A stretch of DNA of 32,000 nucleotides. Origin: Myxococcota bacterium (lineage in GTDB: Bacteria > Myxococcota_A > UBA9160 > JAFDDA01). The notes under the pieces are model-generated. The model saw only the letters and a list, made by a program, of their open reading frames with translations. It ran no database searches and was not told the origin of the DNA. Positions within the stretch are counted from its first letter, which is position 1. The number at the start of each line of letters is the position of its first letter. The position numbers were made by a program, and so were the translations under genes. Where the stretch lies: the NCBI GenBank assembly GCA_965228475.1, contig OZ245817.1, positions 4,080,931-4,112,930 on the forward strand, read 5' to 3'. Positions 16,279 to 32,000 of the stretch are shown in pieces.

Positions 16279-16294
16279 CGTGAAGCACTTCACA
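16279..16294. promoter_or_regulatory. CRP-type palindrome (cGTGA-N6-TCACA) upstream of the distal crp gene
   Basis: CGTGAAGCACTTCACA has 9 of 10 consensus half-site bases and the same AGCACT spacer as the box at 24203. Its centre is 30.5 nt from ATG 16256 and 54.5 nt from GTG 16232. It overlaps the TGA stop (16290-16292) of the upstream crp gene. Confidence 0.6.
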
Positions 16295-17027
16295 GAGTCG
16301 GGGTTTCGCTCGTGCGCCCGGCGCGCGCCGGATCCGCCAGGGCCTCGAGCGGCCCCCGGTCGTGGACGCGCACGACGCCCGACTCGCTCGAGAGCCAGCC
16401 TTCCTGCTCGAAGGCACGCATCTGCTTGTTCACCGCCTCCCGGGTCGCCCCGACGAGGTTGCCGAGCTCGGTCTGGGACAGCTTGAGGTCGATGCGCAGG
16501 CCGTCGGACTCCTCGACGCCGTACTCGTCCGCCAGGGCGAGCAGGGAGCGGGCCAGGCGGTTCGGGAGGTTGCGGAAGAGCGTGTCCTCCATGACCTCGC
16601 TCACGTGAGTGAGGCGCTCGGCCAGGGACGACATGCAGGCGATGGCGATCTCGGGCTGGCGCCGCATCACGTCGAGGAGGTCCCGCCGGTGGATCACGAG
16701 GAGCTCCGCGGGCGTCAGCGCGGTCACGGTCGCGGTGCGGCGGCCGCCGAAGAGCATCGCGACCTCCCCGATGACCTCGCCTTCCTTCATGATCGAGAAG
16801 GTGATCTCCCGGCCGTCCTCGGAGGTCGACGCTGCCTTGAGGCTGCCGCGAAGGACGGCGTAGGCCTCGTTTCCCTCGTCTCCCTTGTGAAAGAGCTCCT
16901 CGCGGGCGGCCAGCTTCTTGCGGACGGTCCGCTCGGCGAGCAGGTCGAGTTCGGCCTCGCCGAGCGACGCGAACACGAAGATCTGCGAAAGCAGCTGACG
17001 GCGATCGACGACGGCGGTGTCGCTCAT
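16290..17027 (-). CDS. Crp/Fnr-family cyclic-nucleotide-binding transcriptional regulator (proximal copy)
   Basis: I chose ATG 17027 (MSDTAVVDRRQLLSQIFVFASL); the ORF-track extension to 17354 is Arg/Ala-rich off-frame-type sequence. Phosphate-binding cassette is GEVAMLFGGRRTATV and the HTH is LSQTELGNLVGATREAVNKQM. The ATG overlaps the upstream stop as ATGA. Confidence 0.85.
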   Translation of the reverse strand: MSDTAVVDRRQLLSQIFVFASLGEAELDLLAERTVRKKLAAREELFHKGDEGNEAYAVLRGSLKAASTSEDGREITFSIMKEGEVIGEVAMLFGGRRTATVTALTPAELLVIHRRDLLDVMRRQPEIAIACMSSLAERLTHVSEVMEDTLFRNLPNRLARSLLALADEYGVEESDGLRIDLKLSQTELGNLVGATREAVNKQMRAFEQEGWLSSESGVVRVHDRGPLEALADPARAGRTSETPTL

Positions 17028-17434
17028 GGCCCGTCCAGACGATGGTTCCGCCCGGTCACGAGGTAGGCCACGCCCGCCACGAGCAGGCCGATGGCCGTCG
17101 CACTGGAGAGGTTCACGCCGAAGCACGGCCAGCCGCACTCGGGCGTGGCGAGCGAGATGAACAGCACCGGAAAGATCACGAGCGCGCCGACGAGCGGCCC
17201 GCGCAGCCACCACGGCTCGGGCCAGGTCGAGACCCCGACCCAGAAGCCGACGAGCATCCGCGCCGTGTAGAACGCCCAGACCATGCGCGAGCCGTCGAGG
17301 TAGTGCGTGTCGAACTTGTAGGGGATCGGGCCGTGCAGATACTGCGGCAGCCACCCGAGTGCGATGCCGAGCACTGCGCAGAGTGCGACGTACGGGACGT
17401 TCCGGCGCGCGCCATCCTGCGAGAACTCAGACAA
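17024..17434 (-). CDS. Small integral membrane protein (about 4 TM helices), function unknown
   Basis: Four hydrophobic segments: VALCAVLGIALGWL, MVWAFYTARMLVGFWVGV, LVGALVIFPVLFISLA and ATAIGLLVAGVAYLV. There is a PECGWPC loop. TTG 17434 has GGGAGGAA about 5 nt upstream and overlaps the methyltransferase stop by 8 nt. The stop overlaps the crp ATG (ATGA). Confidence 0.6.
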   Translation of the reverse strand: MSEFSQDGARRNVPYVALCAVLGIALGWLPQYLHGPIPYKFDTHYLDGSRMVWAFYTARMLVGFWVGVSTWPEPWWLRGPLVGALVIFPVLFISLATPECGWPCFGVNLSSATAIGLLVAGVAYLVTGRNHRLDGP

Positions 17435-18566
17435 GCGTTTCCTCCCGAGGCGCCCGGCCGGCGACGAGATGATACGCCTGGGTCCGGTTGGTCTCGAGGA
17501 ACGCCTCCGAGGCACGCAGGAAGACCCGGAAGGCCCGGACCGACTCCTCGCCGAAGCGTTCCGCCAGGGCCTTCTCTTCCCGCTCCAGCGCGTCCGCCCA
17601 GTCGCGACAGGTCCATGCGTAGGAGATCGTGTCGTCGACGAGTTCGTGCACGTTGAAGCCCTGGGCGACGAGCGCTTCGAGGAGCTTCGGCACGTTCACG
17701 TAGCGGGCGGTGCCCGGGAAGATGTAGCGGCCGAGGAACGCGCCGACCTGGAACCCGCTTCGCTCGCTGCAGAAGTCCGCCCAGAGGCGGCCGTCGTCGC
17801 GGAGGTGGGTCGCGAGGAAGCGGGCGGCATAGGCGTAGTCGGTGAAGTGCTCGAAGGTTCCCATGAAGACCGCGCCGTCGAAGGGCATGGCGGGCTCGAA
17901 GTCGAGCAGGTCGATCCGTTCGACGCAGCAGGGGAGCGAACGCTCGCGAATCAATCCTTCGACGAAACGCCGCTGTTCCTCCGAGAGCGTGATGCCGTGC
18001 ACCTCGATTCCGCGGAGTCCGGCGAATTCGAGGAACGAGCCCCAGCCGCAGCCCATGTCGAGCACACGCATGCCCGGTTCGAGCCCGAGCGTCTCGATGG
18101 CGCGCTCGAACTTGCGGGCCTGGGCCTCCTCGGGAAGATCGTCTTCGGACGCGTAGAGCCCGTGCGAGTAGGAGCGCCAGCGCTCGAACCAGGGCAGGAA
18201 GAACTCGGGCGGGCGATCGTAGTGGAAGGCCACGGACTCGCGCTGCAGGCTGCGGCGGTCGCGGAGCAGGAGCTGTGCCGCGAAGCGCAGCCGCTCGTAG
18301 AGCGAGGGGTCCGGGGCGATCACCTCGGTGAGTCGGATGACTTCGCGGAAGTCCCCTTCGACGTCGATCGCGCCGTGCAGATAGGCCTCGGCGACGCCGA
18401 GCAGGTCCTGCCGCTCGAGGGCGCAGAGCGCCTCGTCTTCGTGGAACACGACCCGCGTTCGCTCCGGGTCCGGGCCGACCCGGTGGAGCACCTCGCTCTC
18501 GTTCTCGAGGGTGAGGTTGGCGCCGGCCTCCGCGAGGGCGTCGATGAGCGGGACGAGGGCGTTCAC
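17427..18566 (-). CDS. Cyclopropane-fatty-acyl-phospholipid synthase family SAM-dependent methyltransferase
   Basis: FHYDRPPEFF, SYSHGLY, LEEAQARKFE and the SAM motif I MRVLDMGCGWGSF are typical of the CMAS/CFA-synthase family. GTG 18566 forms a GTGA overlap with the giant-gene stop. The ORF-track extension to 19649 is off-frame-type sequence inside the giant gene. Confidence 0.8.
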   Translation of the reverse strand: MNALVPLIDALAEAGANLTLENESEVLHRVGPDPERTRVVFHEDEALCALERQDLLGVAEAYLHGAIDVEGDFREVIRLTEVIAPDPSLYERLRFAAQLLLRDRRSLQRESVAFHYDRPPEFFLPWFERWRSYSHGLYASEDDLPEEAQARKFERAIETLGLEPGMRVLDMGCGWGSFLEFAGLRGIEVHGITLSEEQRRFVEGLIRERSLPCCVERIDLLDFEPAMPFDGAVFMGTFEHFTDYAYAARFLATHLRDDGRLWADFCSERSGFQVGAFLGRYIFPGTARYVNVPKLLEALVAQGFNVHELVDDTISYAWTCRDWADALEREEKALAERFGEESVRAFRVFLRASEAFLETNRTQAYHLVAGRAPREETLV

Positions 18567-21500
18567 GCGGCGCTCTTCGACCCCTCCGGGCGCGTGCGCC
18601 GGCGCCGCAGGCGCGCCAGGCCGAGCAGGCCGATCAGCTCGGGGCCGAGCCCGCAGCCACCGGCCTTTTCCTTCGCAACGTAGGGGTTCCCGTTGCACTG
18701 CGGGTCGGGCAGGCCGAAGCCGCCGCCGTCGTAGTCCGTGAAGCCGTCGGCGTCGTTGTCGAGACCGTCGCTGCAGGCCGGGTCTTCCCGGGCGCCGTCG
18801 GGGGCGATGCAGCCCGGATCGCCACCGACGTCGGAGCCGTAGTCGCCGTCGTTGTCCCGGCCGTCGTCGCACACCAGCAGGTTCGAGCGCTCGCTCGTGT
18901 CCGCACCGTCGTCGCAGCCGGCGTCGGCGAGATCCACGAGGCCGTCGCCGTCGTTGTCGATGCCGTCGCTGCAGGCGTTGCCGCCTCCGACGTAGGCGCA
19001 AAGAGAATCGCAGACGCCATCGATGCCGTTCTGCGAACCGTGGTCGCAGCCTTCTCCGTACTCCTGGATGCCGTTGCCGCAGCTCTGGCGGTCGCAGGCA
19101 TCGCCGATGCCGTCGCCATCGACGTCGAGCTGATCGCCGTTGGCGACGTCCTGGCAGTTGTCGATCGGGTCGGCGAGGCCGTCGCCGTCCGCGTCGGCCG
19201 CGGTGGCGATGGTCGTCGTGCCGAGGTCGCAGGTGGCACCTTCGTTGCACTGAGAGTCGTTGTCGCAGGAGCCGTCGCCGTCGGAGCAGCGGCCGCGCGT
19301 CACGTAGCGCTGGCGGCCGTCCTCCGCCTCCTCGAGCGTGGCGAAGAGCGCCTCCGGGTTCAGACCGTCGTCGACGCAGACCTCGGTGGCCGCGCACTCG
19401 GCGTCGGTCAGGCACGGCCCGGTGATGTCCTTGCAGGTGAAGGACCCCGGAACGCCGAGCACGGGGGAGCAGAACTCGTCCCCGGGGCACGAGTCCGGAA
19501 CCTCGGGGTTGCAGCCCGAGCCGGTGTCGAAGAGGCAGCCACCCGGCGGGAAGTAGCATTCGCCTCCGCCCGAGCAGTCGGCATTGCTCGCACAGCCCGC
19601 CGCCGTGACGGTGCAGATGCCCGCGACCGCTCCACCGACGATGTCGCACGCGTCCTCCATCGATCCGCCGGCGATCAACGCCTCCGGGTTGAAGTGCTGG
19701 ATGACGAGGTTCAACGGCCCGCCGCTCTGGTCGAGGTCGTTCCCGCCCTGCTGGGCCTCGAGCGTGAGGAAGCTCACCTTCGTGCCGAGGACGCGGTACG
19801 GGATGCGCGGATCACAGGCTTCCACCGGGCACGGAATGGCGGCCTGCATGCCGTTGTAGGTGCGGCCCGTGGACAGGTCCATGACGTGCATGACCGAATC
19901 GAAGAGATCGCCGTCCGCCACGCCTCCCACGATCGGCGGCACGACGCCGTTCAGGTTGACCCCCTCCCCTTCTTCGCTCACCCGGAACGCGATGATGTCC
20001 TCTCCGAGGACGAAGTCGTCGACGGCGGGGTTGAAGCGAGCCACGCCCTGGTCGTCGAGGAAGGCGACGGGCTGTCCGCTGGCGTCGTAGACGTGCAACA
20101 CGCGGTCGAGCTGATCGCCGTCTCCGTTCAAGGCGGCTCCCTGGTCCGCCTCCGGCACGGTGAAGGCGACGAAGCCTCCGACGGTCTGGACGTCGTCCGC
20201 GGCCAGGAAAAGGTTCTGCCAGGTCCCGCTCGTTCCCGTCGCCGTGTCGTTCAGATGGACGACGAGGTCGTCCATGTCGCCATCGCCGTTCAGGAAGAGG
20301 CCTTCCTGCGCCTCCGAGGCCAGGGCTGCAACGACCTGACTCGAAACCGCGACCTGATCGGCGGCCAGGGCCAGGTTCACCGCGGGGCCGGCCTGGCGGT
20401 TGCGGTAGAGCTGGACGACGAGGTCGTCGAAGTCGCCGTCGCCGTTGTGGTCGACTCCAGCGCCCGCCGCGGACTCGTCGGCCAGGAAGGCCGCGTTGCC
20501 ATCGCGCACGCTGACGGCCTCGGCGCTGCCGAAGCGAAGGACGGTGAAGGGGCCGACCGCCTGCGTGTCCGCGACCGCGAGCACCGTGTCGCGCGAGTCC
20601 CCGTCGCCGTTCAGGTCGTTGCTCGCGCCGTCGAGCGCGGGTTTGCGGAGGTAGCGGCCGCCCGGAAGCAGCTTGGCGTGGAAGACCGTCTCGGCGTCCC
20701 CCTGGATCTGCCCGGAAGTGTCGGGCTGATTGCCGAGTCCGTCGGGGAAAAACGAGAAGATCCTGGTGACTCGGTCCACGAACTGCGGAGCGAAGCTCCC
20801 GGAAGGATGGCCACCGAAGTAGAAGGGCTGGACGAGTGCGTAGCGGCCGTCCGAAGAGAGCGTGCCTCCCTGGCTGGGCGTGTCGAAGCCCAGCGTGGAG
20901 AGCCCGACCTCCTCGCGCGACACCGTCCCCGGCTCGTCGAAGATGCCGTCGTCGTCGCCGTCCCGATCGTAGATGACCGCCAACCCGCCGGGCTGCCAGC
21001 CCATGATCACGCGGCCGTCGTCGCTCATGTCCGTCGGGATGATCCACTGGGTGTCGAGCAGGGAGGGCGAGACGAACTCGGCTTCGCCGCTCTCGTCGTA
21101 GATTCCGTCGCCATCGAGGTCTCGGTCGAGGATGAAGGCGTCGCTGCGCAGGTTCGTATCCCCCGCGATGAGGTTCGACGCCGTCGAGCGGAAGAGAACG
21201 TAACGGCCGTCGCGAGACATCTCCGCCGGCGTGAACAGGTCGTCGTTGGGCGCCACGCCCACCCCGAGCACGGCGTCACTCGCCCGATAGCTCGCGATCG
21301 CCCCGGGCTCGTCGTAGATCCCGTCTTCGTCGGTGTCCCGGTCGTGGATGACGAGCTCGCTGTCCAGGAACGCGTCGCCAGCGATCATGTTCGTCGCGCT
21401 GGAGGCGAAGACCACGAACCTTCCGTCGTCGCTCATGCGCGGACGCGAGGAGCCGTTGTTGGCCTGGACACCGGCCGAGCTCACGCTCACCCGGACGTTC

Positions 21501-24148
21501 GCCACGAAACCCGGCTCGTCGTAGATCCCGTCCTCGTCGGTGTCCCGGTCGTGGATGAACACGTCGTCGCTGCCGTTCGTGTCGCCCGCGATCAGGTTGC
21601 TCGCGTCCGAGGAAAAGGCCACGTAGCGGCCGTCGGCGCTGATGTCTCCGATGTGGTGGTCCCCGGCGACGGGGTTGCCCAGGGTGTCGAGGCTCACGGT
21701 GATCCGGACGAAGCCTTCGTCGAGGATGCCGTCGAGATCGTCGTCCCTGTCGTAGACCTCGAGGAACGAGCTCGTCTCGTTCTGGTAGGCGATCCAGCGC
21801 TGGTTGCTCGAAAAGCGCAGCTCGTCGCCGAGGAACGAACGGTTGGCGACCTGCCAGCTTGCACCCCCTCGCTCCGACTCGCGAAAGAAGACCAGGCCGT
21901 CGGACACCGCCAGGGTCTGCCCGTTGACGTCCGCGATCGGATCGACTGCGAGATCGAGGCCGGCGGTCAGCTCGGTCGGAGCGGGCGTTTCGATCCGGAA
22001 GACTCGCAGGAGCGTGTCCAGACGGTCGCCGTCGCCGTTCAACCCGCCCAAGACCGACGGGGACTCCCATCGCTCCGCCTCGAGGAAGGCGGCGATGTCG
22101 TCCTCGATCGCCAGCGGCGGGAAACGATAGATCCCGTCCCGGACGCGGGCAGAGGCCCGGCCGGTTCCGCCGACCCGGCGCGCGATGTCCGCGGAATCCG
22201 CACTGTCGTCGATCTTGAGGTCGATGATCGTCTCGTCCGTCGAGTCGCCGTCGAGGTTGAGATCGGTGGACTCGAGCCGTTCCGAGCGCACGAACGCGAA
22301 CAGGTCGTCGGTCTGGGCCAGCGACTCGATCGCGACGGGGTTCAGGGCCTCGGCGGTGTACTCGGCGCTCGCCAGGAGGATCGGGCCGGTTCCGCCCGAG
22401 TAGCGATCGCTGAAGTCGAAGTTGCTCGGACCACACTCCCCGCCGGGACAGGCGCCATCCCCGGTGCACGCGACCCCGTCGTTGACGCCACCCCGGCAGA
22501 GCGCCTGGACGCAGGTCGAGGACGGACACTCGAAGTCGGCGATACAGGCCAGCCCGCCCCGGGTCCCGGCGGCGCACTCGCGGAACTCGGGGCTCCGGCG
22601 CAGCACGCGGATCACGCCGATCTCGGCATCCGTGGACCCGAACAGCGTCGTGTCGGTGCTCGTGGGGTTGGAGAGTGGGTTGAACAGCGGATCGACTCGT
22701 AGCCCCTTCTGCGAGAGCGACTGCAGGAAACGCGCGCCGGGAATCTCGATCGGCGCTCCCGGCGTCTGGTTCGCCTCGGGCGGCGCCCCAGTGAACGCAG
22801 CGATCGAGCTCTGGATCTGGACGAGGCGTGGAATGGGCAGGGTTCGTGGCTGGACGAGAACGCCCCGCCAGTCCACCGGAATGACCAGGTTGCCCTCGGC
22901 GTCCGTCGTGAACTGGACGTCGGCGCCGCTGTTGTTGCAGCTCACCGACGGGTTCCCGGCGGTGCAGATGTCTTGAAAATCATTGGGCGCGGGCAGCGCC
23001 GTCACGCCGGCGAACTGCTCGTGGGCGTTCTCCGGTCCCGCCTCACAGGTCCCGTCGGAGGCGTAGATCCGGTCGATGCAGGCAACGAGGCCGCCTGGCG
23101 CACCTGGCCCCCCGCACTCGGTCGTCGCGAGGGCGCACGGCAGTGCGGCGCCGCTTGGAGAGACCGCAAGGGTCGTCGGGCCCACGAAAGCGGTATCCGG
23201 AAAAGCGAAGGAGATGGCATCGGCCTGGACGCTCGGCGACAGGTCGTCGCGGCAGGTCGCAGTCCCGCCGCCCAGACTCGCGTTGCAGGCGGCGACCTGA
23301 CTGACGAATGCGGTGCAGTCCCCACCGGGCCCCGGGATGATCACGGCGTTCGCCGGACCCGAGGGCGGCTCGAAGAGGACCGTCGTCGTGGCGGGGCTCG
23401 CCGAATCGTGCAGGGTGAAGTTGTCGATCGCCCACCAGTCGTTGGCCGCCTGCTTGAGCTCGGCCAGAATTCGAAGCTCGTCCACGTCGGCAAGGAGTGC
23501 AGCCCAGCTCCCCGAAACGAGCTGCCAGTTCCCGGTCGGCCCCGCGCTCGAGATCGGGATGTCGAAGCCGCTGCCCCATTGCTCGAAGGGGATGGCCGAG
23601 ATCTCGGCCTGGTCGGCCTGGTACTCGGCGACGCCTCCGGGGCCTTCGATGCGGATCAGCGCGACCGGGGCCGTGAGGTACGGGCCGGCATCGAACCCGG
23701 TCCAGTGCTCCCACGAGATCCGGTTCACGCCTCGCGCCAGCCAATCGCCGAGGTACTGCGACGGCGCGAGCAGGCTCGCCACGTCGCCAGCGCTTCCGTC
23801 GCCGCCGAACAGCACGCGCCCGGGCGGAGGGTTCCTTCCGGCGTTGAAGAAGAAGGCGTGCGTCCCGAACGTCGCCCAGGCTTCCAAGCCGCCTGACTCG
23901 AAATCGCTCAGCGTGGCGGCCGAGCCGAAGCTCGTACCCGATTCGCACCCCGCCGGGTCGAGGGCGATGCGAACCGGGTCACCGGGGCTCGCGAACACCC
24001 GGTTCACGCTTCCCGCGGCGCCGCGAAACTCGGTCTCCGGCTGGGGAATGACGTCGCAGTACGAGGCAGCGGTGCTCGGCAGGAGCGCCGAGGCCAGGAC
24101 GGCCAGGGCAACGATCGCAAGTGAACCCGCGCGGCAGGAGATCTTCAT
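18563..24148 (-). CDS. Giant secreted acidic Ca-binding-repeat / Cys-rich surface protein, paralog A (1861 aa)
   Basis: ATG 24148 (MKISCRAGSLAIVALAVLASALLPSTAAS/YCDV) has GAGGGA 10 nt upstream. After the signal peptide comes a lectin/CBM-like module ending in DNFTL, then Cys-rich segments. Next are five PD40/TolB-like blades (S.DGR.V.F.S.A.NLIAGDTN), each followed by DRDxDxDGI[YF]DE. LNGDGDxxDxV[LV]H repeats follow, then thrombospondin type-3 repeats (DADGDGLADPIDNCQDVANGDQLDVDGDGIGDACD). A Myxococcus-type Cys-rich repeat (CGNGIQEYGEGCDHG...C) and three C.DG.DNDGDG modules come next. The C-terminal tail is GGCGLGPELIGLLGLARLRRRR. Confidence 0.85.
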   Translation of the reverse strand: MKISCRAGSLAIVALAVLASALLPSTAASYCDVIPQPETEFRGAAGSVNRVFASPGDPVRIALDPAGCESGTSFGSAATLSDFESGGLEAWATFGTHAFFFNAGRNPPPGRVLFGGDGSAGDVASLLAPSQYLGDWLARGVNRISWEHWTGFDAGPYLTAPVALIRIEGPGGVAEYQADQAEISAIPFEQWGSGFDIPISSAGPTGNWQLVSGSWAALLADVDELRILAELKQAANDWWAIDNFTLHDSASPATTTVLFEPPSGPANAVIIPGPGGDCTAFVSQVAACNASLGGGTATCRDDLSPSVQADAISFAFPDTAFVGPTTLAVSPSGAALPCALATTECGGPGAPGGLVACIDRIYASDGTCEAGPENAHEQFAGVTALPAPNDFQDICTAGNPSVSCNNSGADVQFTTDAEGNLVIPVDWRGVLVQPRTLPIPRLVQIQSSIAAFTGAPPEANQTPGAPIEIPGARFLQSLSQKGLRVDPLFNPLSNPTSTDTTLFGSTDAEIGVIRVLRRSPEFRECAAGTRGGLACIADFECPSSTCVQALCRGGVNDGVACTGDGACPGGECGPSNFDFSDRYSGGTGPILLASAEYTAEALNPVAIESLAQTDDLFAFVRSERLESTDLNLDGDSTDETIIDLKIDDSADSADIARRVGGTGRASARVRDGIYRFPPLAIEDDIAAFLEAERWESPSVLGGLNGDGDRLDTLLRVFRIETPAPTELTAGLDLAVDPIADVNGQTLAVSDGLVFFRESERGGASWQVANRSFLGDELRFSSNQRWIAYQNETSSFLEVYDRDDDLDGILDEGFVRITVSLDTLGNPVAGDHHIGDISADGRYVAFSSDASNLIAGDTNGSDDVFIHDRDTDEDGIYDEPGFVANVRVSVSSAGVQANNGSSRPRMSDDGRFVVFASSATNMIAGDAFLDSELVIHDRDTDEDGIYDEPGAIASYRASDAVLGVGVAPNDDLFTPAEMSRDGRYVLFRSTASNLIAGDTNLRSDAFILDRDLDGDGIYDESGEAEFVSPSLLDTQWIIPTDMSDDGRVIMGWQPGGLAVIYDRDGDDDGIFDEPGTVSREEVGLSTLGFDTPSQGGTLSSDGRYALVQPFYFGGHPSGSFAPQFVDRVTRIFSFFPDGLGNQPDTSGQIQGDAETVFHAKLLPGGRYLRKPALDGASNDLNGDGDSRDTVLAVADTQAVGPFTVLRFGSAEAVSVRDGNAAFLADESAAGAGVDHNGDGDFDDLVVQLYRNRQAGPAVNLALAADQVAVSSQVVAALASEAQEGLFLNGDGDMDDLVVHLNDTATGTSGTWQNLFLAADDVQTVGGFVAFTVPEADQGAALNGDGDQLDRVLHVYDASGQPVAFLDDQGVARFNPAVDDFVLGEDIIAFRVSEEGEGVNLNGVVPPIVGGVADGDLFDSVMHVMDLSTGRTYNGMQAAIPCPVEACDPRIPYRVLGTKVSFLTLEAQQGGNDLDQSGGPLNLVIQHFNPEALIAGGSMEDACDIVGGAVAGICTVTAAGCASNADCSGGGECYFPPGGCLFDTGSGCNPEVPDSCPGDEFCSPVLGVPGSFTCKDITGPCLTDAECAATEVCVDDGLNPEALFATLEEAEDGRQRYVTRGRCSDGDGSCDNDSQCNEGATCDLGTTTIATAADADGDGLADPIDNCQDVANGDQLDVDGDGIGDACDRQSCGNGIQEYGEGCDHGSQNGIDGVCDSLCAYVGGGNACSDGIDNDGDGLVDLADAGCDDGADTSERSNLLVCDDGRDNDGDYGSDVGGDPGCIAPDGAREDPACSDGLDNDADGFTDYDGGGFGLPDPQCNGNPYVAKEKAGGCGLGPELIGLLGLARLRRRRTRPEGSKSAA

Positions 24149-24202
24149 CGTCAGTGCGTCCCTCATCATGGACGGAGCTTCCGCAATCCTGGCCGCCGGC
24201 TC

Positions 24203-24218
24203 TGTGAAGCACTTCACA
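24203..24218. promoter_or_regulatory. Perfect CRP-type palindrome TGTGA-N6-TCACA upstream of giant paralog A
   Basis: TGTGAAGCACTTCACA extends to the 18-bp perfect palindrome CTGTGAAGCACTTCACAG. Its centre is 62.5 nt upstream of ATG 24148, in the 208-nt gap between the two giant genes. Confidence 0.65.
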
Positions 24219-24226
24219 GGAAAGAT

Positions 24227-24248
24227 CGAAAAGTGGGGCGCGAGCCCC
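24227..24248 (-). terminator. Weak candidate terminator after giant paralog B
   Basis: On the minus strand, GGGGC-tcgc-GCCCC (5-bp stem) is followed by ACTTTTCGATCTTTCC. It lies between the paralog B stop and the CRP box of paralog A. The stem is short and the homologous position upstream of paralog B folds differently. Confidence 0.3.
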
Positions 24249-24309
24249 CCGAGGAAGTCTGGACGGTGGCCGTATTGTACTCTCAGGCGGCCCCTCGAGG
24301 GACCCTGAG

Positions 24310-24360
24310 TCAGCGCTTTTGGCCGACGCGGGCCCCGATGAGCGGGACGAGGGCGTTCAC
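24310..24360 (-). pseudogene. Duplication scar: 16-codon remnant of the methyltransferase 5' end
   Basis: Nt 24336-24366 repeat nt 18542-18572 almost exactly (cgatgagcgggacgagggcgttcacgcgg). This preserves the GTGA stop/start overlap after paralog B. The remnant reads VNALVPLIGARVGQKR*; its first 8 residues are identical to the methyltransferase N-terminus VNALVPLIDAL. Confidence 0.65.
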
Positions 24361-27300
24361 GCGGCGCTCTTCGACCCCTCCGGGTGCATGCGTCGGCGCC
24401 GCAGGCGCGCCAGGGCGAGCAGTCCGATCAGCTCGGGGCCGAGCCCGCAGCCCGTGCCTTCCTTGTTCACCGAAGCGTTCGGGCATTGCGGGTCCGGATC
24501 GCTGAAGCCACCGCCGTCGAAATCGGTGAAGCCGTCGCCGTCGTTGTCCAGACCGTCGCTGCAGGCGGGATCCTCGCGAAGCCCGCCCGGGAGGAGGCAG
24601 CCCGGGTCACCCCCGACGTCCGCACGGTAGTCCCCGTCGTTGTCCCGGCCGTCGTCGCACACCATCACGTTCGTGCGCTCGCTCGCGTCGGCCGCGTCGT
24701 CGCAACCCGGATCGATCAGATCCACCCGGCCATCGCCGTCGTTGTCGATGCCATCGTTGCACGCGGTTCCGGCGCCCTCGTAGGCGCAGGCCGCGTCGCA
24801 CACGCCGTCGATCCCGTTCTGGGCGCCGTGGTCGCACCCCTCGCCGTACTCCTGGACCCCGTTCCCGCACACCTCGCGGTCGCAGGCATCCCCGATGCCG
24901 TCGCCATCGATGTCTAGCTGGTCGCCGTTGGCGACGTCCTGGCAGTTGTCGATGGGGTCGGCGAGACCGTCGCCGTCGGCGTCGGCCGCGGTGGCAATCA
25001 CGAGGACGTCGAGGTCGCAGGTCGCACCCGCGTTGCACTGGGCATCGCTATCGCAAGACCCATCCCCGTCCGAGCAACGGCCCCGGGTCACGTAGCGCTG
25101 GCGGCCATCCTCTTCCTCGCGGATCGAGGCGAAGAGTTGCTCCGGGTTCGACTGGTCCGCGACGCAAACCTCGGATGCGGAGCACTCATCGTCCGTCAAG
25201 CACGGGCCGGTGAATTCCTGGCAGGTGAACGTTCCCGGAGAACCAGGCTGAGGTGCACAGAACTGACTACCGCTGCAAGTCACGGGGTTCTCCGGTGCAC
25301 AGATCGTCCCGGTGTCGGAGAGGCAGCCGCCGGGTGGGAAGTAACAGGTGCTCCCTCCGGTGCAGTCGAGATCGCTCGCGCAGCCTTCGCCCGTCGCGGT
25401 GCAGAACCCCCCGATGGCTCCGCCGAGGATGTCGCACGCGTCTCCCATCGGCGCCCCAGCAGCCAAGGCACCGGCGTTGAAGTGCTGGAGCACGAGGCTC
25501 AGAGGCCCCCCGCTCTGGTCCAGGTCGTTTGTCCCCTGCTGCGCCTCGAGGGTGAGGAAGGTGACCTTGTCGCCCAGAACGCGGTAGGGGACACGCGGAT
25601 CGCAGGCTTCGACCGGGCACGGAATCGCCGACTGGTTCGAGTTGTAGGTGCGGCCGGTCGCCAGGTCCATCACGTGGATCACGGCGTCCAGCAGGTCGGC
25701 GTCGGCGACCCCACCGGGAATAGGCGGAACCACGCCGTTGAGATTGACGCCCTCCCCCGCCTCACTGACCCGAAAGGCGATGATCTGCTCACCCAGGACG
25801 AAATCCTCGACTGCGGGGTTGAAGCGCGGTGCGCCAGTTTCGTCGAGGAAGAGAACGGGCTGGCCGGCCCCATCGTAGACGTGCAGCACGCGGTCGAGCT
25901 GATCACCGTCGCCGTTCAGCGCGGCACCTTGGTCAGCCTCCGGGACGGTGAATGCGACGTAGTCACCCCGGGCCTGAACGTCGTCCGCCGCCAGGAAGAG
26001 ACTCTGCCAGGTCGCATCGGTGCCGGTTGCCGTGTCGTTCAGGTGGACGACGAAGTCGTCCATGTCGGCATCGCCGTTGAGGAACAGGCCTTCGCCGGCC
26101 TCGGAGACCAGAGCTGCGACCCACGCGTCCGAAACCGCGACCTGCGATGCCGCCAGGCCGAGGTTGACGGGACTCCCGACCTGCCGGTTCCTCCACAGGT
26201 GGACGACCGAGTCGTCGAAGTCGCTATCGCCATTGAGATCGAGGACCGGATCGGCGGCTTCGTCGCGGAGCCAGACGGCCGTCCCGTCCGCAATCTGCAC
26301 GTCCTCGCCCGGGCCAAGGAAGGCCGCGGCTGGCATCGCGGCCTGGGTGTCGAGAACCGAGAGCAGCACGTCCTCGGCGTCCCCGTCGGAGTTCAGGTCG
26401 GCACCGAGATCGAAGCGATCGACCGTCGAGATCATCAGCGTATCGTTGTCGTTGAAGGGCGCGATGGTGTCCCGCACCACGATGCTGGTGGCATCCGCCG
26501 AGACGGGCATCATCCAGGGCCCATCGGCCAGACCCAGGACCAGCGCGTTCCCCCGGAGGCCGGTCTCGAAATCGGCGGTCTCGATCCCGAAGCGGGTGAA
26601 GCCGACCCGTCGTCCCGATGGATCGAGGCCCAACGCTTGATCGTCGACGACGCCGAGATCCACGATGTCGATGCCGTCCGATTCGTCGAAGACACCGTCC
26701 TCGTCCGCGTCGCGGTCGACGACGATCGCAGCGACGCACGAGGTGAAGGGACACTCACCGTTCGCGAGGAAGCTCACGAAGCGCCCGTCGTCGGAGACGT
26801 CTGTGAGCTCGACGACGTTGCTCACCCCGGGAAGGGGCATGATCGAGGACACGATGGTCGCGGCGGTGATCGTCCCTGGCTCGTCCAACAACCCGTCGTC
26901 GTCGGAGTCGCGGTCGAAGACGACCACTTCCGCGTTCACGTTGAGGAAGGCCGCGATGAATCGACCATCCGGCGTCATCTTGAGCGGCCGATTCGTGGTC
27001 GGCAGACCCAGGCCGGCCTCCGTGCCGAGGTCGATCACGACGTTCGGCGGAGCGATCTCATCGTAGATCCCGTCGCCATCGGGGTCTCGATCGGTGACGA
27101 AGACTCCACCGACGAATCCGCCGCCAACCTCGTTTCCGCGCAGGGCGGCGACGTGGCGCCCATCGGACGAGATCTGCGGAAACACGGTCGCGAAGATCGG
27201 CACCGCGAAGTCGAGCAGCGTGGTCGTCGGCAGCCCGGGGCCGGGCCCCTCGTCGAAGATGCCGTCCTCGTCGGGGTCCCGGTCTCGCACGTAGACGTCG

Positions 27301-29978
27301 AAGTTCCCGTCGACGTCGCCCGGCCCGAGGGATCGCGTCGCGAGAGCGAGATGGCGCCCGTCGTCACTCAGGTCTGCGCCGCCGAAGGTGTAGATGGGGA
27401 ACGGGTCGCAGATGCCGATGCAGCCGATCTCTGCCCCGGTGTCGGAGAGGCTTTGCCTCGTGATCTCGGTGGCGCCGGCCTCGTCCAGGATGCCGTCCGC
27501 GTCGGTGTCGCGATCCAGCACGAAGTGATCGGGGTCGAAGTTGGTGTCCCCAGCGACCAGGTTGTCGGCATCGCTCTCGAAGATCAGGAATCGACCATCG
27601 GGCGTGATGTCCCCCGGGAAGGTCATCGAGTTCGGAGCCGGTTCGGGCGACAGCACGACGGTGCTCCGGACCGCCGAGTCGAGCTCCGAGCTGCGGTAGA
27701 AGAGCAGACCGTCAGAAAGGCGTAGCGGCGCGTCTGCCACCTCCGGGAGGGCGTCGAGTGCCGGGGGCGTGCCCGTCACGAGCGCGACGGGAGACCCAGC
27801 CTCCAGCCGGAAGGCGCGGAGTACGCCATCGACCGTGTCTCCGTCGAGAGTGGAGTCGGAATCGCCCTCGCCGTACTCGGACTCGACCATCGCCAGGACG
27901 TCACCTTCGACGTCGAAGGCCGGGAAGCGGTAGGGGAACACGCGGACCCGCGTGCTTGCACGCCCCGCGGCGCCCGGAGCGCCGATCTCGACGACCTCGC
28001 CCGTTTCGGCGTCGACCATCGAGACGATCGTGGTGTCGTCCTGGTCGCCGTCCAGGTTGAGGTCTGCCGACTCGAGGGGCTCGGACCGGACGAACATGAA
28101 CAGATCGTCGTTGGCGACGAGGCCATCGATCGCTGCCGGGTTCGCTGCCTCGGCCGTGTAGTCGACGCTCGACAGCAGGACCGGGCCCGTCCCCCCCGCG
28201 GAGTAGCGATCGCTGAAGTCGAAGTTCGAGGGTCCGCACTCCCCGCCCGGGCAGGCGCCGTCGCCCGAGCAGACCAACCCGTCCCGGCTTCCGCCGCGGC
28301 AGCGCGCCCGGACGCAGGTCGAAGCCGGGCACTCGAAGTCCGCGATGCAGGCCAGAGCGCCTCGCGGACCACCGGCACACTCCTTGAACTCAGGACTCCG
28401 GCGAAGAACCCGGATCACTCCGATCTCGGCGTCCGTGGAGCCGAACAGGGTGGTGTCGGAACTCTGGGGGTCGGAAATCGGGTTGAACAGCGGATCGACC
28501 CGCAGCCCTTTCTGGGAAAGCGACTGCAGGAAGCGCAACCCGGGTACCTGGATGGGCGCACCGAGTGTCTGATTGACCTCCGGTGGGGTGCCCGTGAACG
28601 CGGCTACGGAGGTACTGACGCTCACGAGCCGGGGAATGGGCAGGGTCCGGGGCTGAACGAGGACCCCGCGCCAGTCCACCGGCACGACGACGTTGCCCTC
28701 TGCATCGGTCGTGAACTGGACGTCGACACCGCTGTTGTTGCAGCTGACGGAAGGATTGGTTGCGGTGCAGATGTCCTGGAAGTCGTTGGGTGCGGGAAGC
28801 GCCGTCAGCCCGGCGAACTGTGGGTGGGCGTTCGCGGCGTCGGTCTCACAGGTCCCGTCCTGCGCGTAGATCTCGTCCGTACACGCGATGAGACCGGCCG
28901 CGGGGCCGAGGTCCGCGCAGCGGTTCGTTGCCAGTTCGCACGGCAACGGACCGCCATCGAAGGTCACCGCGACGGAGACGGGACCGGCGAAGGACGTTGC
29001 CGGGAAGTCCAGAGTCAGCCGATCCGTCGTCGCCGTGATCGCCGGATCCTCGACGCAGGTGGGCATCGGCCCGCCGAGCTCGGCGCCGCAAGCCGCCAGC
29101 TCTGCGGCCATGGCGGCGCAACCCCCGGCGACGGGAGTGACCACCACGGCGTTCGAGGGTCCGGCGGGCGGCTCGAAGACGAAGGTCACCACGTTGGGCG
29201 TGCTCGTCGATTCTTGGAGCGTCAGGTTGTCGATGCCGTAGGAATCGCATGAAGCGTCGCCCAGCTCGCCGAGGATGAGGACGCTGCTGACGTTCGAGAG
29301 CACCTGGTCCCACGTCTCGGCGCCCGCCGCGAGGCTCCAACCGGGCGGCGGACTGCTGCCCGGCGCGACGGGAATGCTGAAGCTCCCCCAGCTCCCGACG
29401 GGAATCGCGTCGATCTCGGCCTGTGAGGGCTCGTACTGGTAGGTGGTTCCAGCTCCGGAAAGGACTCGAACGAGCGGGATCGGCACCGTCAGACGGGCGC
29501 CTCCGCAAAGACTCACGATCTGGTGGTCCCACGCAATGCCGGTGACACCACGCGCGATCCAGTCGCCGTCCCAGCTCGAGGGCGCGCTGACACCGGCGTC
29601 GGTCGTCGGTGCGATGTCCTGGCCGAACACATGGCCATCGGGGTTGCCACCGGGCGATTGCCAGAAGAACAGGTCGTGGAAGCCGCTCACCAACCAGCCC
29701 TCGAGATCCGCCGCGAACGGGCTGACCAGCGGGCTGGGCATGCTGTTCGGGAAACTCGTGCCCGCCTCGCAGCCGGCGGGGGCATCGTCGAGCGAAACCA
29801 CGAGTGGATCGCCGGCGCTCGCGTACACGCGGTTCAGGCTTCCGACGGCGCCGCGGAACTCGGTCTCGGGTTGGGGAATGACGTCGCAATACGACACGGC
29901 GGGGGTCGGCTGGAGGACGAGGACCAGGGCGACCGCCACGGCCGCCCGAAGAGAGGTGGTGCGAACGGAGATCTTCAT
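24357..29978 (-). CDS. Giant secreted acidic Ca-binding-repeat / Cys-rich surface protein, paralog B (1873 aa)
   Basis: ATG 29978 (MKISVRTTSLRAAVAVALVLVLQPTPAVS/YCDV) has GAGGGA 7 nt upstream. It has the same module order as paralog A. The N-terminal about 650 aa and C-terminal about 650 aa align colinearly with many identical blocks. The central blade region has diverged. The tail is GCGLGPELIGLLALARLRRRR. Confidence 0.85.
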   Translation of the reverse strand: MKISVRTTSLRAAVAVALVLVLQPTPAVSYCDVIPQPETEFRGAVGSLNRVYASAGDPLVVSLDDAPAGCEAGTSFPNSMPSPLVSPFAADLEGWLVSGFHDLFFWQSPGGNPDGHVFGQDIAPTTDAGVSAPSSWDGDWIARGVTGIAWDHQIVSLCGGARLTVPIPLVRVLSGAGTTYQYEPSQAEIDAIPVGSWGSFSIPVAPGSSPPPGWSLAAGAETWDQVLSNVSSVLILGELGDASCDSYGIDNLTLQESTSTPNVVTFVFEPPAGPSNAVVVTPVAGGCAAMAAELAACGAELGGPMPTCVEDPAITATTDRLTLDFPATSFAGPVSVAVTFDGGPLPCELATNRCADLGPAAGLIACTDEIYAQDGTCETDAANAHPQFAGLTALPAPNDFQDICTATNPSVSCNNSGVDVQFTTDAEGNVVVPVDWRGVLVQPRTLPIPRLVSVSTSVAAFTGTPPEVNQTLGAPIQVPGLRFLQSLSQKGLRVDPLFNPISDPQSSDTTLFGSTDAEIGVIRVLRRSPEFKECAGGPRGALACIADFECPASTCVRARCRGGSRDGLVCSGDGACPGGECGPSNFDFSDRYSAGGTGPVLLSSVDYTAEAANPAAIDGLVANDDLFMFVRSEPLESADLNLDGDQDDTTIVSMVDAETGEVVEIGAPGAAGRASTRVRVFPYRFPAFDVEGDVLAMVESEYGEGDSDSTLDGDTVDGVLRAFRLEAGSPVALVTGTPPALDALPEVADAPLRLSDGLLFYRSSELDSAVRSTVVLSPEPAPNSMTFPGDITPDGRFLIFESDADNLVAGDTNFDPDHFVLDRDTDADGILDEAGATEITRQSLSDTGAEIGCIGICDPFPIYTFGGADLSDDGRHLALATRSLGPGDVDGNFDVYVRDRDPDEDGIFDEGPGPGLPTTTLLDFAVPIFATVFPQISSDGRHVAALRGNEVGGGFVGGVFVTDRDPDGDGIYDEIAPPNVVIDLGTEAGLGLPTTNRPLKMTPDGRFIAAFLNVNAEVVVFDRDSDDDGLLDEPGTITAATIVSSIMPLPGVSNVVELTDVSDDGRFVSFLANGECPFTSCVAAIVVDRDADEDGVFDESDGIDIVDLGVVDDQALGLDPSGRRVGFTRFGIETADFETGLRGNALVLGLADGPWMMPVSADATSIVVRDTIAPFNDNDTLMISTVDRFDLGADLNSDGDAEDVLLSVLDTQAAMPAAAFLGPGEDVQIADGTAVWLRDEAADPVLDLNGDSDFDDSVVHLWRNRQVGSPVNLGLAASQVAVSDAWVAALVSEAGEGLFLNGDADMDDFVVHLNDTATGTDATWQSLFLAADDVQARGDYVAFTVPEADQGAALNGDGDQLDRVLHVYDGAGQPVLFLDETGAPRFNPAVEDFVLGEQIIAFRVSEAGEGVNLNGVVPPIPGGVADADLLDAVIHVMDLATGRTYNSNQSAIPCPVEACDPRVPYRVLGDKVTFLTLEAQQGTNDLDQSGGPLSLVLQHFNAGALAAGAPMGDACDILGGAIGGFCTATGEGCASDLDCTGGSTCYFPPGGCLSDTGTICAPENPVTCSGSQFCAPQPGSPGTFTCQEFTGPCLTDDECSASEVCVADQSNPEQLFASIREEEDGRQRYVTRGRCSDGDGSCDSDAQCNAGATCDLDVLVIATAADADGDGLADPIDNCQDVANGDQLDIDGDGIGDACDREVCGNGVQEYGEGCDHGAQNGIDGVCDAACAYEGAGTACNDGIDNDGDGRVDLIDPGCDDAADASERTNVMVCDDGRDNDGDYRADVGGDPGCLLPGGLREDPACSDGLDNDGDGFTDFDGGGFSDPDPQCPNASVNKEGTGCGLGPELIGLLALARLRRRRMHPEGSKSAA

Positions 29979-30029
29979 GGTTGCGTCCCTCGTCATGGAC
30001 GGAGCTTCCGCGATCTTCGCCGGTAGCTC

Positions 30030-30045
30030 TGTGAACCACTTCACA
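30030..30045. promoter_or_regulatory. Perfect CRP-type palindrome TGTGA-N6-TCACA upstream of giant paralog B
   Basis: TGTGAACCACTTCACA has both half-sites perfect. Its centre is 59.5 nt upstream of ATG 29978 and it begins 85 nt downstream of the STAND/TPR gene stop. Confidence 0.65.
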
Positions 30046-30129
30046 GGAGACCCGGAAAGTCGGGTCCCCGAAGGAAGAGCGCCCTGGGGCCGCATTGTAC
30101 CTGGGCGCGGGGGTCTCATGGACCGCGGG

Positions 30130-32000
30130 TCAGGCCCGGGGGCCGCGCAGTCCCATTCCGGCTAGTGCACGATCGACCCGCTCGACCTCCGGGAGCATCC
30201 CGAGCGCCTCGGCTTCGGCGCGGGCCCGGAGCCACCAGCGGCGGGCGCCCCGGGCATCGCCGATGAGCGAACGGCGCGTTCCTTCGAGGCGCTGGATCTC
30301 GGGCCGGCGCAGGGCCACCCAGCCTCCGGCGCGCAGCGCTTGCCGGGCGACCCTGCGCGCGAGCTGCCGGTCTCCCCGGCCCTCCGCGAGGGCATCGAGC
30401 TCGCACAGCAGCCGGGAGCGCAGCACGACCGCCTTGTGGAAGGGAGGCACGAAGGCGGTCGCCTCGGAGAGCAGCGACTCCGCGGCGGTCAGGCTGCGCT
30501 CGGCCTCCTCCCGCCGCCCGAGGCCCAGCTGGGCCTTCGCCTTGTTCCCGAGAGCCAGGAGGTTCGGGAGCGGGTCCGGCTGCTCGCTGAAGTGCGCCTC
30601 GGCCGCCTCGATCGCCCGCTCCCATTCTTCCCGCTCGAGCGCCAGGAACGTCTCGAGCGCCCGCACCGTGGCCTTCGCCTGCTCGAACTGGAAGAGTTCG
30701 GCCACATGCTCGAGGCGCGCGATCCCCGTGCGCGCCTCCTCGAACCGGCCCTGCATGATGCGGCGCTCGGTCTGCAGGCCCAGGTAGTTGGTGACGTCGA
30801 AGAGCTGGCCGTCGCGGATCCGGTCCTCGAGGAAGTCGACGGGCAGCTCGTGTGCCGCGCTCCAATCGCCGGCCAGCGTTTGGTGGGTGGCATTCATCAT
30901 GCCGTAGATCATGCGCTCTTCCGGGTCGTCGGCGTCCACGAGTTCCCGGGCCTGGGCGAGGAACCGCTCGCTGATGGCGAAGGAGACGCCGCCGAAGGAG
31001 AAGATCCCGACGCTCGATGCGAACTGTCCGCCGGCGAGCGGAAGCGTGCGCGGGTCGACGTCTCCCAGGCGACGCACGGCGTCCATCCAGTCGAAGAGGT
31101 AGCGGTCCGTCGCGTTCGTCGTCTGCGCGCGCGCGCGCTCGTAGACGAGCTCCTGGATCTGGCGTTCCGTTTCCGTCGCCCCGCGACGCGCCCTCCCGAA
31201 GCGGCGGAAGTAGACGCGGCCGAGGATCAGCGCGAGGTCGCGCACGAGGCGGAGGTTGCGGCGAATCGGCTGCTTCGCTCCGACCACGCCATGGCATTCG
31301 AGCGCCGCGTCGAAGTGGAGGATGGCCTCGGCATAGCGGCCGCGGTTCACGAGAGCCAGGGCCATGTTCCGCTCGAGCAGGCCGAGCTTCTCCGAGCGGT
31401 CTTCCTCACCGTGGAGATTGCGGAACAGGGCGGCGGCGTCCTCGAAGAAACGCAGTGCCTCGTCCGATGCCGCGGAGCGCGCCGCTTCGTCGCCGGCCGC
31501 GAACAGGTGGTGCTCGGCGCGCTCCACGTCCCCCGCACGACTGAAGTGGTGCGCGAGCATCGCGTGGGCACCGGGCTCGTCGCCGTCGAGCCGCGCCTCG
31601 ACGGCGCGGCCCACCTGGCCGTGCAGCTCGCTGCGCCGGCCCTCGAGCATCGAGTCGTAGACGACCTCCTGGATCAAGGGATGCTTGAACTGGAACTCGC
31701 CGGCTCGCCCTTCGCGGCGTTCGATCATCTCCGACGTCTCGAGGCGCGCCAGGTCGCCCTCGACCGCGCGGCCCTCCACATCGGCGAGGACATCGCCCTC
31801 GAAGGCGAAGCCGATCGCCGACGCGACGCGCAGGAGGTCGCGCCCCTCCCGGCCGAGACGGTCCACGCGGGCCATCACGACCTCCTGGAGGGTTCCGGGG
31901 ACGGCGACCTCGTGGATCCGGGGCGTCGCGACGAGTCGGCCGCCGCGCTCTTCGAGCGCGCCGGCGTCCCGCAGGCCGCGGACGACCTCCTCGGCGTAGA
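30130..32000 (-). CDS. C-terminal part of a large STAND/AAA(+)-TPR signalling protein, 5' end beyond window
   Basis: The reading frame is open from nt 31998 (YAEEVVRGLRDAGALEERGGRLVATPRIHEVAVPGTLQEVVMARVDRL). The blocks TLQEVVMARVDRL, FQFKHPLIQEVVYDSML and HAMLAHHFSRAGD are typical of the winged-helix/linker after an AAA_16-type NTPase. About 450 aa of TPR-like helical repeats follow. The N-terminal effector domain is not visible. Confidence 0.75.
   Translation of the reverse strand, partial: YAEEVVRGLRDAGALEERGGRLVATPRIHEVAVPGTLQEVVMARVDRLGREGRDLLRVASAIGFAFEGDVLADVEGRAVEGDLARLETSEMIERREGRAGEFQFKHPLIQEVVYDSMLEGRRSELHGQVGRAVEARLDGDEPGAHAMLAHHFSRAGDVERAEHHLFAAGDEAARSAASDEALRFFEDAAALFRNLHGEEDRSEKLGLLERNMALALVNRGRYAEAILHFDAALECHGVVGAKQPIRRNLRLVRDLALILGRVYFRRFGRARRGATETERQIQELVYERARAQTTNATDRYLFDWMDAVRRLGDVDPRTLPLAGGQFASSVGIFSFGGVSFAISERFLAQARELVDADDPEERMIYGMMNATHQTLAGDWSAAHELPVDFLEDRIRDGQLFDVTNYLGLQTERRIMQGRFEEARTGIARLEHVAELFQFEQAKATVRALETFLALEREEWERAIEAAEAHFSEQPDPLPNLLALGNKAKAQLGLGRREEAERSLTAAESLLSEATAFVPPFHKAVVLRSRLLCELDALAEGRGDRQLARRVARQALRAGGWVALRRPEIQRLEGTRRSLIGDARGARRWWLRARAEAEALGMLPEVERVDRALAGMGLRGPRA

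Follow-up and report, generated by a model that had tools for sequence, protein, structure and literature searches.

Ancient mosaic tandem genes for giant proteins in a Myxococcota bacterium, with a young 3′ patch that most likely reflects gene conversion

Two giant genes in tandem

We analyzed a window of 32,000 nucleotides (nt) from a Myxococcota bacterium (contig OZ245817.1 of assembly GCA_965228475.1, positions 4,080,931 to 4,112,930), in which two genes for giant proteins, here called B and A, lie head to tail on the minus strand. All coordinates are positions in this window, and gene order is read on the minus strand: the 3′ part of a large upstream gene (the cyclase-STAND gene), B, A, a CMAS-type methyltransferase gene, a gene for a small membrane protein, crp1, and crp2. 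The source genome is one contig of 5,006,157 bp with 70.5% G+C, whose order-level relatives are metagenome-assembled genomes (MAGs) labelled Myxococcota by NCBI. A and B appear to be very old paralogs of mosaic ancestry, whereas the nearly identical stretch at their 3′ ends is young and was most likely copied from A to B by gene conversion. The features on which this account rests are as follows.

30130..32000, minus strand: 3′ part of the cyclase-STAND gene; stop codon at 30130-30132; the gene extends ~2.6 kb past the window
30088..30100, minus strand: conserved block GTACAATGCGGCC upstream of B; aligns with 24268-24280
24357..29978, minus strand: giant gene B; 1873 amino acids (aa); its ortholog P0013 is 78% identical
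24336..24452, minus strand: young patch, B side; the final 31 codons of B with the stop, then 24 nt from the methyltransferase start
24310..24360, minus strand: remnant open reading frame (ORF) of 16 codons, VNALVPLIGARVGQKR followed by a stop; its GTG overlaps the stop of B (GTGA), and codons 1 to 8 are identical to the methyltransferase start
24268..24280, minus strand: conserved block GTACAATACGGCC upstream of A; aligns with 30088-30100
18563..24148, minus strand: giant gene A; 1861 aa from an MKIS start; paralog of B
18542..18658, minus strand: young patch, A side; sorting-signal tail of A and the methyltransferase start
17427..18566, minus strand: CMAS/cyclopropane-fatty-acid-synthase-type methyltransferase gene (Pfam CMAS, 3.3e-41; NCBIfam)

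An earlier, sequence-only reading of this DNA had described A and B as direct repeats produced by duplication of a 5.8-kb unit with readable boundaries. They are indeed direct repeats and tandem paralogs, aligning at offsets of 5788 to 5830 nt, and their homology takes in the leader as well as the coding sequence and runs on for 24 nt beyond the stop. Pairwise alignment confirmed the repeats, though at 60% aa identity and 66% nt identity (codon-aligned) they are far from identical. The boundaries are readable on one side only. At low coordinates, homology breaks off abruptly at 18542/24336. The match between 24336-24366 and 18542-18572 clearly exceeds its flanks, since it lies inside an exact run of 49 nt (18542-18590 = 24336-24384) with no homology beyond 18542. 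No other in-register exact match between the two units is as long (the runner-up is 32 nt), and the run includes both TGA stops, the GTGA overlap, and methyltransferase codons 1 to 8. The remnant ORF that follows B, with its GTGA overlap at the stop, is as that reading described it, and a Shine-Dalgarno (SD)-like GGAGGGG for it sits within the tail of B. The methyltransferase coding region beyond 18542 showed no homology to the junction at 24222-24336 (1116 of 3000 null scores equalled or exceeded the observed one); a match to CTCGAGGG in the MAFFT alignment was therefore taken as chance.

At the other end, homology fades. The leaders of A and B, from a CRP-type box to the ATG, match at 42 of 48 nt. 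Considered in full, the stretch before the box is also significantly similar, with a score of 19 that none of 3000 random genomic segments reached (their maximum was 17). Block GTACAATNCGGCC, which was considered as a genome-wide motif, was ruled out as such, having just two sites in the whole genome, upstream of A and of B. Homology through the leader, the box, and the GTACAAT block thus stands, but the part distal to GTACAAT, taken alone, is not significant (225 of 3000 null scores at least as high). Nor could homology be shown to end exactly at the TCA of the cyclase-STAND stop codon, as had been proposed: the best local alignment passes through the supposed 24-nt junction filler and continues into the last codons of the cyclase-STAND gene. 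The stop codon of the remnant ORF does line up with that of the cyclase-STAND gene. Over the 24 nt, 10 positions are identical, which is not significant; rather than filler, this stretch may be a decayed remainder of the cyclase-STAND coding sequence. The unit thus has a sharp 3′ end, but its 5′ end cannot be placed.

Age and mosaic ancestry of the two copies

The B protein has a signal peptide, an N-domain, Cys-rich blocks, and a PD40-type propeller cassette with DxDxDG loops, followed by TSP3-like and acidic double-disulfide repeats and a C-terminal tail (Cys, short helix, Arg cluster). Pfam and NCBIfam gave almost no matches on the A and B proteins themselves; relatives of A and B match PD40, TSP3, and Myxococcus Cys-rich repeats.

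Synonymous divergence (dS) between A and B is ~1 (0.6 to 1.8) in every 60-codon window except the last. Where the two proteins have the same residue, the fraction using the same codon is 0.600, compared with 0.548 expected at full saturation from codon usage (third-position G+C, 89%), so hardly any synonymous signal is left between the copies. In a tree of 32 family members, the branching (P0006,(A,(B,P0013))) has starred support. P0013, a partial sequence encoded in another MAG, has 78% aa identity to B and is nearer to B than A is in every window covered. Because P0013 is an ortholog of B to the exclusion of A, the A/B split is older than the divergence of B and P0013. The P0013 contig spans only aa ~360 to 1480 of B, with neither gene end visible. 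Its start (L026:1-106) carries a 44-nt inverted repeat foreign to the gene, probably an assembly artifact; the contig is labelled Gemmatimonadota at NCBI, while other close relatives are labelled Myxococcota, and the label may be a binning error.

Trees of individual segments disagree about the relationship of the copies. A and B are sisters in the conserved blocks at aa 351-650 and aa 1230-1830. In the N-domain tree (aa 60-350), B joins P0006 whereas A joins P0005/P0007, and monophyly of A and B is rejected (approximately unbiased [AU] test, p = 8e-5). For the central propeller cassette (aa 780-1190), the tree unites A with P0005 (100/98) and puts B plus P0013 elsewhere; A+B monophyly is again rejected (AU p = 1e-3). 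Identities, saturation, and tree discordance, which are direct observations, together point to A and B as very old, mosaic tandem paralogs.

Over the first 60 codons, A and B use the same codon at a fraction of 0.73 of identical residues against 0.52 expected (n = 37), beside a leader that is 88% identical; this is not significant alone. Such raised codon identity at the 5′ end may reflect an older layer of conversion or regulatory constraint.

The young 3′ patch and its explanation

The 3′ end departs from this pattern. Between 18543-18658 and 24337-24452, 111 of 116 nt are identical (96% over the last 117 nt), and dS in the last 60-codon window is 0.08. Within the patch, 26 of the 28 identical residues use the same codon (0.929 against 0.437 expected), the most extreme value of all windows. 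Immediately upstream of the patch, the alignment collapses with insertions and deletions, and immediately downstream homology is lacking. Elsewhere in the genome, genes that share this kind of tail have only 71 to 79% nt identity over the patch. The chance of 24 identical positions out of 24 in a neutral remnant is ~5e-5 at a background of 66% identity and ~2e-3 at 77%; such identity is improbable for a neutral remnant as old as the A/B split, which argues that the patch is young. The claim that the duplication carried along a piece of the methyltransferase gene therefore has to be divided: a copy of the A-methyltransferase junction does follow B, but with a dS of 0.08 against ~1 it is not a scar of the duplication. 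Nor does a mappable breakpoint scar survive the saturated synonymous sites, the ortholog of B, the mosaic trees, and the youth of the patch.

The coding part of the patch specifies the C-terminal tail, which in the translations of both A and B is tripartite, with a Cys motif (GCGLG.EL), a short hydrophobic helix, and an Arg cluster. A tripartite Cys/helix/Arg architecture has been described for MYXO-CTERM sorting signals (PMC11980579), and MYXO-CTERM and related Cys-containing C-terminal signals are processed by myxosortase (PMC11980579; bioRxiv 10.1101/2023.06.07.544157). Like MYXO-CTERM, the A/B tail ends large secreted proteins of a Myxococcota-affiliated genome, several other genes of which share it, and its architecture suggests that it works as a sorting signal of the MYXO-CTERM type. 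Formal membership was ruled out: a genome scan with the curated model, TIGR03901, left the A and B tails unmatched even at E ≤ 10, and the protein scan did not list that family, so we call the tail similar in working and do not file it as MYXO-CTERM. It differs further in ten extra residues past the Arg cluster (...PEGSKSAA), which within the family only A and B have.

RNA structure was considered as a cause of conservation in the patch and in the leaders and was rejected. The patch copies fold no better than shuffled sequences (z = 0.08 and −1.75) and have no Rfam match. The leaders (24149-24202 and 29979-30029) contain a small hairpin (CGUCC...GGACG) that would pair with part of the SD-like GAGGGA, with the sole A/B substitution in the loop; z is +1.1 for A and −2.45 for B, so that among the four values only the B leader is mildly unusual.

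Similar 3′ ends recur in related loci. Locus L186 has the order cyclase-STAND gene, P0005, and a second giant gene (g2). Both L186 giants, which share 66% protein identity, are nearer to A than to B, and they therefore form an independent tandem pair. Synonymous sites of this pair are saturated over most of its length, but the last ~650 nt visible are 88 to 98% identical, with 148 of 150 nt matching in the last 150 nt before the contig ends; a contig break at this place is the expected effect of a near-identical repeat in short-read assembly. Locus L188 has the last 48 codons of a giant gene, then P0008, a methyltransferase, and a small membrane protein; the 3′ ends of its upstream giant and of P0008 are identical at 106 of 110 nt and differ only in the Arg tail. 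The 3′ ends of tandem copies are thus clearly homogenized in two genomes (that of the window and that of L186), and L188 suggests a third case. Neither L186 nor L188 has an ORF of the 16-codon type at its junction. A tandem pair in G031, considered as a further case, was ruled out by its differing C-termini; it is more distant and a younger duplication. As for the single-copy relatives for which the sequence-only reading had called, locus L187 supplies that state: cyclase-STAND, PEMT, one giant gene, and the CMAS methyltransferase.

We consider it probable that the locus combines ancient mosaic tandem paralogs, a recent 3′ conversion tract, and a CRP-type activator promoter for each copy. On this account, the A/B duplication would be too old to have left a readable scar. 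Each copy would form its own transcription unit, with a weak promoter that needs a CRP-family activator at a palindrome centered near −41.5. A conversion or template-switch tract would have replaced the last ~117 nt of B by A sequence, and its end would be the sharp junction. The copied tract would comprise the sorting-signal tail, the stop, the ribosome-binding site (SD-like GGAGGGG), the GTG, and the first 8 methyltransferase codons, leaving the 16-codon ORF as a by-product. With 3′ conversion recurring, the copies would retain matching C-terminal sorting modules even as their N-domains and propeller cassettes diverge or are swapped.

For the patch itself, we infer that the most likely cause is a recent gene conversion (or an equivalent template switch) from A to B. 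As to direction, the part past the stop is native only to the junction between A and the methyltransferase, which argues that at least this part moved from A to B and that the A side was the donor for it. Since conversion cannot pass the end of homology, the end of the tract may coincide with the end of an older homology and may still mark the original breakpoint.

Several points weigh against this account. Conversion needs flanking homology, and there is none beyond 18542 and only ~75% identity just upstream of 18658; the event may have been illegitimate, or the tract may end where an older homology ended. Constraint on the sorting signal explains part of the identity in the patch, though not its synonymous or noncoding part. 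The groups submitted to the AU test were chosen after the first tree had been seen, and the fast-evolving cassettes have long branches. The upstream copy in L188 is visible for 149 nt only, and the G031 pair shows no 3′ homogenization. No close relative showing the junction turned up, the best relatives in a scan of genome contigs having ≤55% identity.

The original proposal, a single tandem duplication of a 5.8-kb unit whose junction is preserved as 25 nt of the methyltransferase gene, ~24 nt of filler, and the upstream stop, would account for the sharp 3′ homology end at 18542/24336 and for the alignment of the remnant-ORF stop with the cyclase-STAND stop, and it suits the existence of single-copy loci in which a giant gene adjoins the methyltransferase. 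Even under the conversion account, the old breakpoint may still be marked by where the 3′ end lies, though not by its sequence, since conversion is bounded by homology. We nevertheless consider a preserved junction unlikely. Synonymous sites are saturated, and a body with 66% identity and dS ~1 is joined to a junction with 96% and 0.08; P0013 is an ortholog of B that leaves A out; the mosaic phylogeny means that the copies are not each other's closest relatives along their full length; a remnant of that age would retain 24 of 24 identical positions with a probability of only ~5e-5 (66% background) or ~2e-3 (77%); and the distal 5′ homology is not significant. It is likewise doubtful that B (or A) was inserted as a distinct member, or that its cassettes were replaced by horizontal recombination, with the similarity of the flanks arising by later conversion. 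The different nearest relatives of the two N-domains and central cassettes would fit such an origin, as would independent tandem pairs elsewhere and the patchy spread of these genes, none of which turned up in the same-genus (89% complete) and same-family (81% complete) genomes. However, A and B are sisters in the conserved blocks, share an upstream block that has no further copy in the genome, and adjoin a junction at which no genes of mobile elements were observed; an old duplication with differential loss also fits the same data.

An old patch held in place by selection at the nucleotide level, through the 16-codon ORF, translational coupling, or an RNA or DNA element over the stop, seems quite improbable to us. 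The patch does contain the SD-like GGAGGGG, a GTG, and an open frame of 16 codons, and the sorting signal it encodes is functionally constrained (PMC11980579 for the architecture). Yet protein-level constraint does not lower dS, the patch folds like its shuffles and belongs to no Rfam family, and the first 8 to 10 residues of the methyltransferase are not conserved among orthologs. Moreover, the L186 and L188 junctions lack such an ORF, and genes with the same tail are only 71 to 79% identical at the nucleotide level. We give very little weight to an assembly or polishing artifact, whether a false duplication or a falsely homogenized patch. The genome is a single contig of 5,006,157 bp in which the copies differ at one third of their bases (34%), so that there is no collapsed or expanded repeat and a false duplication is impossible; the patch retains 5 differences, and gene-caller proteins are on record for both copies.

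Promoters, the conserved module, and what it means

Each giant gene is preceded by a perfect CRP/FNR-type palindrome. The promoter features and the genes downstream of the methyltransferase are as follows.

30030..30045, minus strand: palindrome of B, perfect TGTGA-N6-TCACA, 51 nt before the ATG
30003..30008, minus strand: candidate −10 hexamer of B, GAAGCT, starting 22 nt past the box
24235..24248, minus strand: hairpin and T-run resembling a terminator, separating the end of B from the box of A
24203..24218, minus strand: palindrome of A, perfect TGTGA-N6-TCACA, 54 nt before the ATG
24176..24181, minus strand: candidate −10 hexamer of A, GAAGCT, starting 22 nt past the box
17024..17416, minus strand: gene for a small membrane protein of ~130 aa, conserved together with the locus
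16290..17027, minus strand: crp paralog 1 (crp1), cyclic nucleotide-binding (cNMP-binding) domain and Crp helix-turn-helix (HTH); its start overlaps the preceding stop (ATGA)
16279..16294, minus strand: third box, one mismatch; overlaps the crp1 stop, in front of crp2
15627..16256, minus strand: crp paralog 2 (crp2), 43% identical to crp1

With up to one mismatch allowed, the window has 3 boxes against 0.19 expected; perfect boxes number 4 genome-wide. Boxes also precede other family members (P0006, four G033 paralogs, G030:C17, P0012, P0008, and both L186 genes), lying 48 to 67 nt before the likely start. In 12 family promoters, an NAnnnT hexamer starts 22 to 23 nt past the box (for example, TAGAAT, TAGGAT, TAGGCT, TACTCT, GAAGCT, or GAGGCT). 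If the end of the box is taken as −34, the hexamer would fall at −12/−7 and the box center near −41.5, the hexamer serving as a proxy for the transcription start site. In the Busby and Ebright model of class II CRP- and FNR-dependent promoters, the activator site lies near −41.5 and replaces the −35 element. The A and B promoters resemble this class in having a perfect 16-bp palindrome, a −10-like hexamer 22 to 23 nt further on, and no −35 element, at a locus that holds genes for cNMP-binding Crp-family regulators and a nucleotidyl cyclase; they differ in that their candidate −10 elements (GAAGCT) are weak.

GTACAAT was considered as a σ70 promoter and ruled out, because a scan found no σ70 consensus promoter there. 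The sequence-only reading took promoter and operator to have been duplicated with the gene. Each copy does have its own CRP-type box and promoter region, but the geometry common to 12 promoters suggests that the box is probably a class II activator site and not an operator downstream of a GTACAAT promoter. Whereas synteny and the spacing of box and hexamer are observed, from these arrangements we infer activator function and two separate activator-dependent transcription units, B ending at the terminator-like hairpin (1 found against 0.2 expected). The A transcript would read through into the methyltransferase, membrane-protein, and crp1 genes. The starts of these three genes overlap or abut the stops before them; the GTG start of the methyltransferase, for example, overlaps the stop of A.

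The likely inputs to the A and B promoters would be the flanking double cyclase and the two Crp-family genes (cNMP-binding domain plus HTH_Crp) in the window. The cyclase-STAND product, from the ORF extended in the genome, has ~1480 aa with two class III nucleotidyl cyclase domains, AAA_16/STAND ATPase domains, and TPR (Pfam Guanylate_cyc, 6.5e-41 over 2 stretches; AAA_16, 1.9e-30). A CATGCT hexamer lies 22 nt past the third box, before crp2, and the position of that box suggests autoregulation or cross-regulation of crp1 and crp2. Outside the window, at G000:C1:786120-786164 of the genome, two CRP-type boxes, one perfect and one with one mismatch, lie 29 nt apart; the gene just downstream codes for a product with the same Cys-rich C-terminal modules as A and B (matches at 786813 and 788508). 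The putative box regulon may be a set of surface proteins.

Much of this arrangement recurs. A cyclase-STAND gene also lies upstream of a giant gene in L186, L187, and G033:C92, and the methyltransferase gene lies directly 3′ of a giant gene in L187 and L188 as well; L191 has a giant gene, the small membrane protein, and a cyclase-STAND gene. The locus thus has a conserved order of cyclase-STAND gene, giant gene(s), CMAS methyltransferase, and small membrane protein. The small membrane protein (~125 to 130 aa) has a PECGWPC motif, belongs to no Pfam family, and has counterparts at L188:7211-7600 and L191:6014-6388 with 67 to 71% identity across loci; in every locus seen, it adjoins the giant gene, the methyltransferase, or the cyclase, and it is a conserved part of the module. 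At L187:16237-17817 and L188:7578-9152, 3′ of the methyltransferase, lie an apolipoprotein N-acyltransferase-like gene (LNT_N plus CN_hydrolase) and a B12-binding radical SAM gene. The co-occurrence of acyltransferase-like, CMAS-type, and PEMT-type genes hints at a lipid modification tied to the Cys-anchored giant proteins. No A/B homolog was found in the same-genus and same-family genomes, which are 89% and 81% complete. A scan of metagenome contigs for A/B relatives returned nothing above 61% identity and short pieces only, and the C-terminal 400 aa of B, used as a protein query, gave no ortholog fragment.

Old tandem paralogs with partial concerted evolution are a known outcome of a known mechanism; the present case is clean and recurs within its family. 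In Helicobacter pylori, the 3′ segments of babA/babB and homA/homB undergo concerted evolution by intragenomic gene conversion, according to PMC3960876, which cites Pride and Blaser (2002, J Mol Biol 316:629). Those genes resemble A and B in being surface-protein paralogs with divergent 5′ and middle parts, 3′ ends alike within a genome, and similarity that is discordant from segment to segment. In contrast to them, A and B are tandem neighbors of 5.6 kb each and date back much further; their tract is only ~117 nt and passes the stop into the start of the neighboring gene; and their host belongs to an uncultured-type Myxococcota lineage and is not a host-adapted pathogen.

A broader reading is more tentative. 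It is possible, though we would not rate it as probable, that free-living bacteria of this uncultured Myxococcota order have a bab-like system of surface variation, in which recurrent 3′ concerted evolution keeps the lipid or sorting anchor matched while N-terminal and propeller cassettes are diversified or swapped, all under cyclic-nucleotide/CRP control. If so, in one genome the tract has passed the stop and copied the translation-start cassette of the next gene.

The locus offers a natural example of partial concerted evolution of a sorting-signal module. Identity at such a junction dates the last conversion and not the duplication, so that a clean "breakpoint scar" can mislead. For a little-known lineage, the analysis sets out a conserved module in which one or two giant Ca-binding surface proteins are accompanied by a double cyclase-STAND gene, a lipid-type methyltransferase, a small membrane protein, and Crp regulators. 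Its promoter architecture extends across the family and makes cyclic-nucleotide control of these surface proteins testable.

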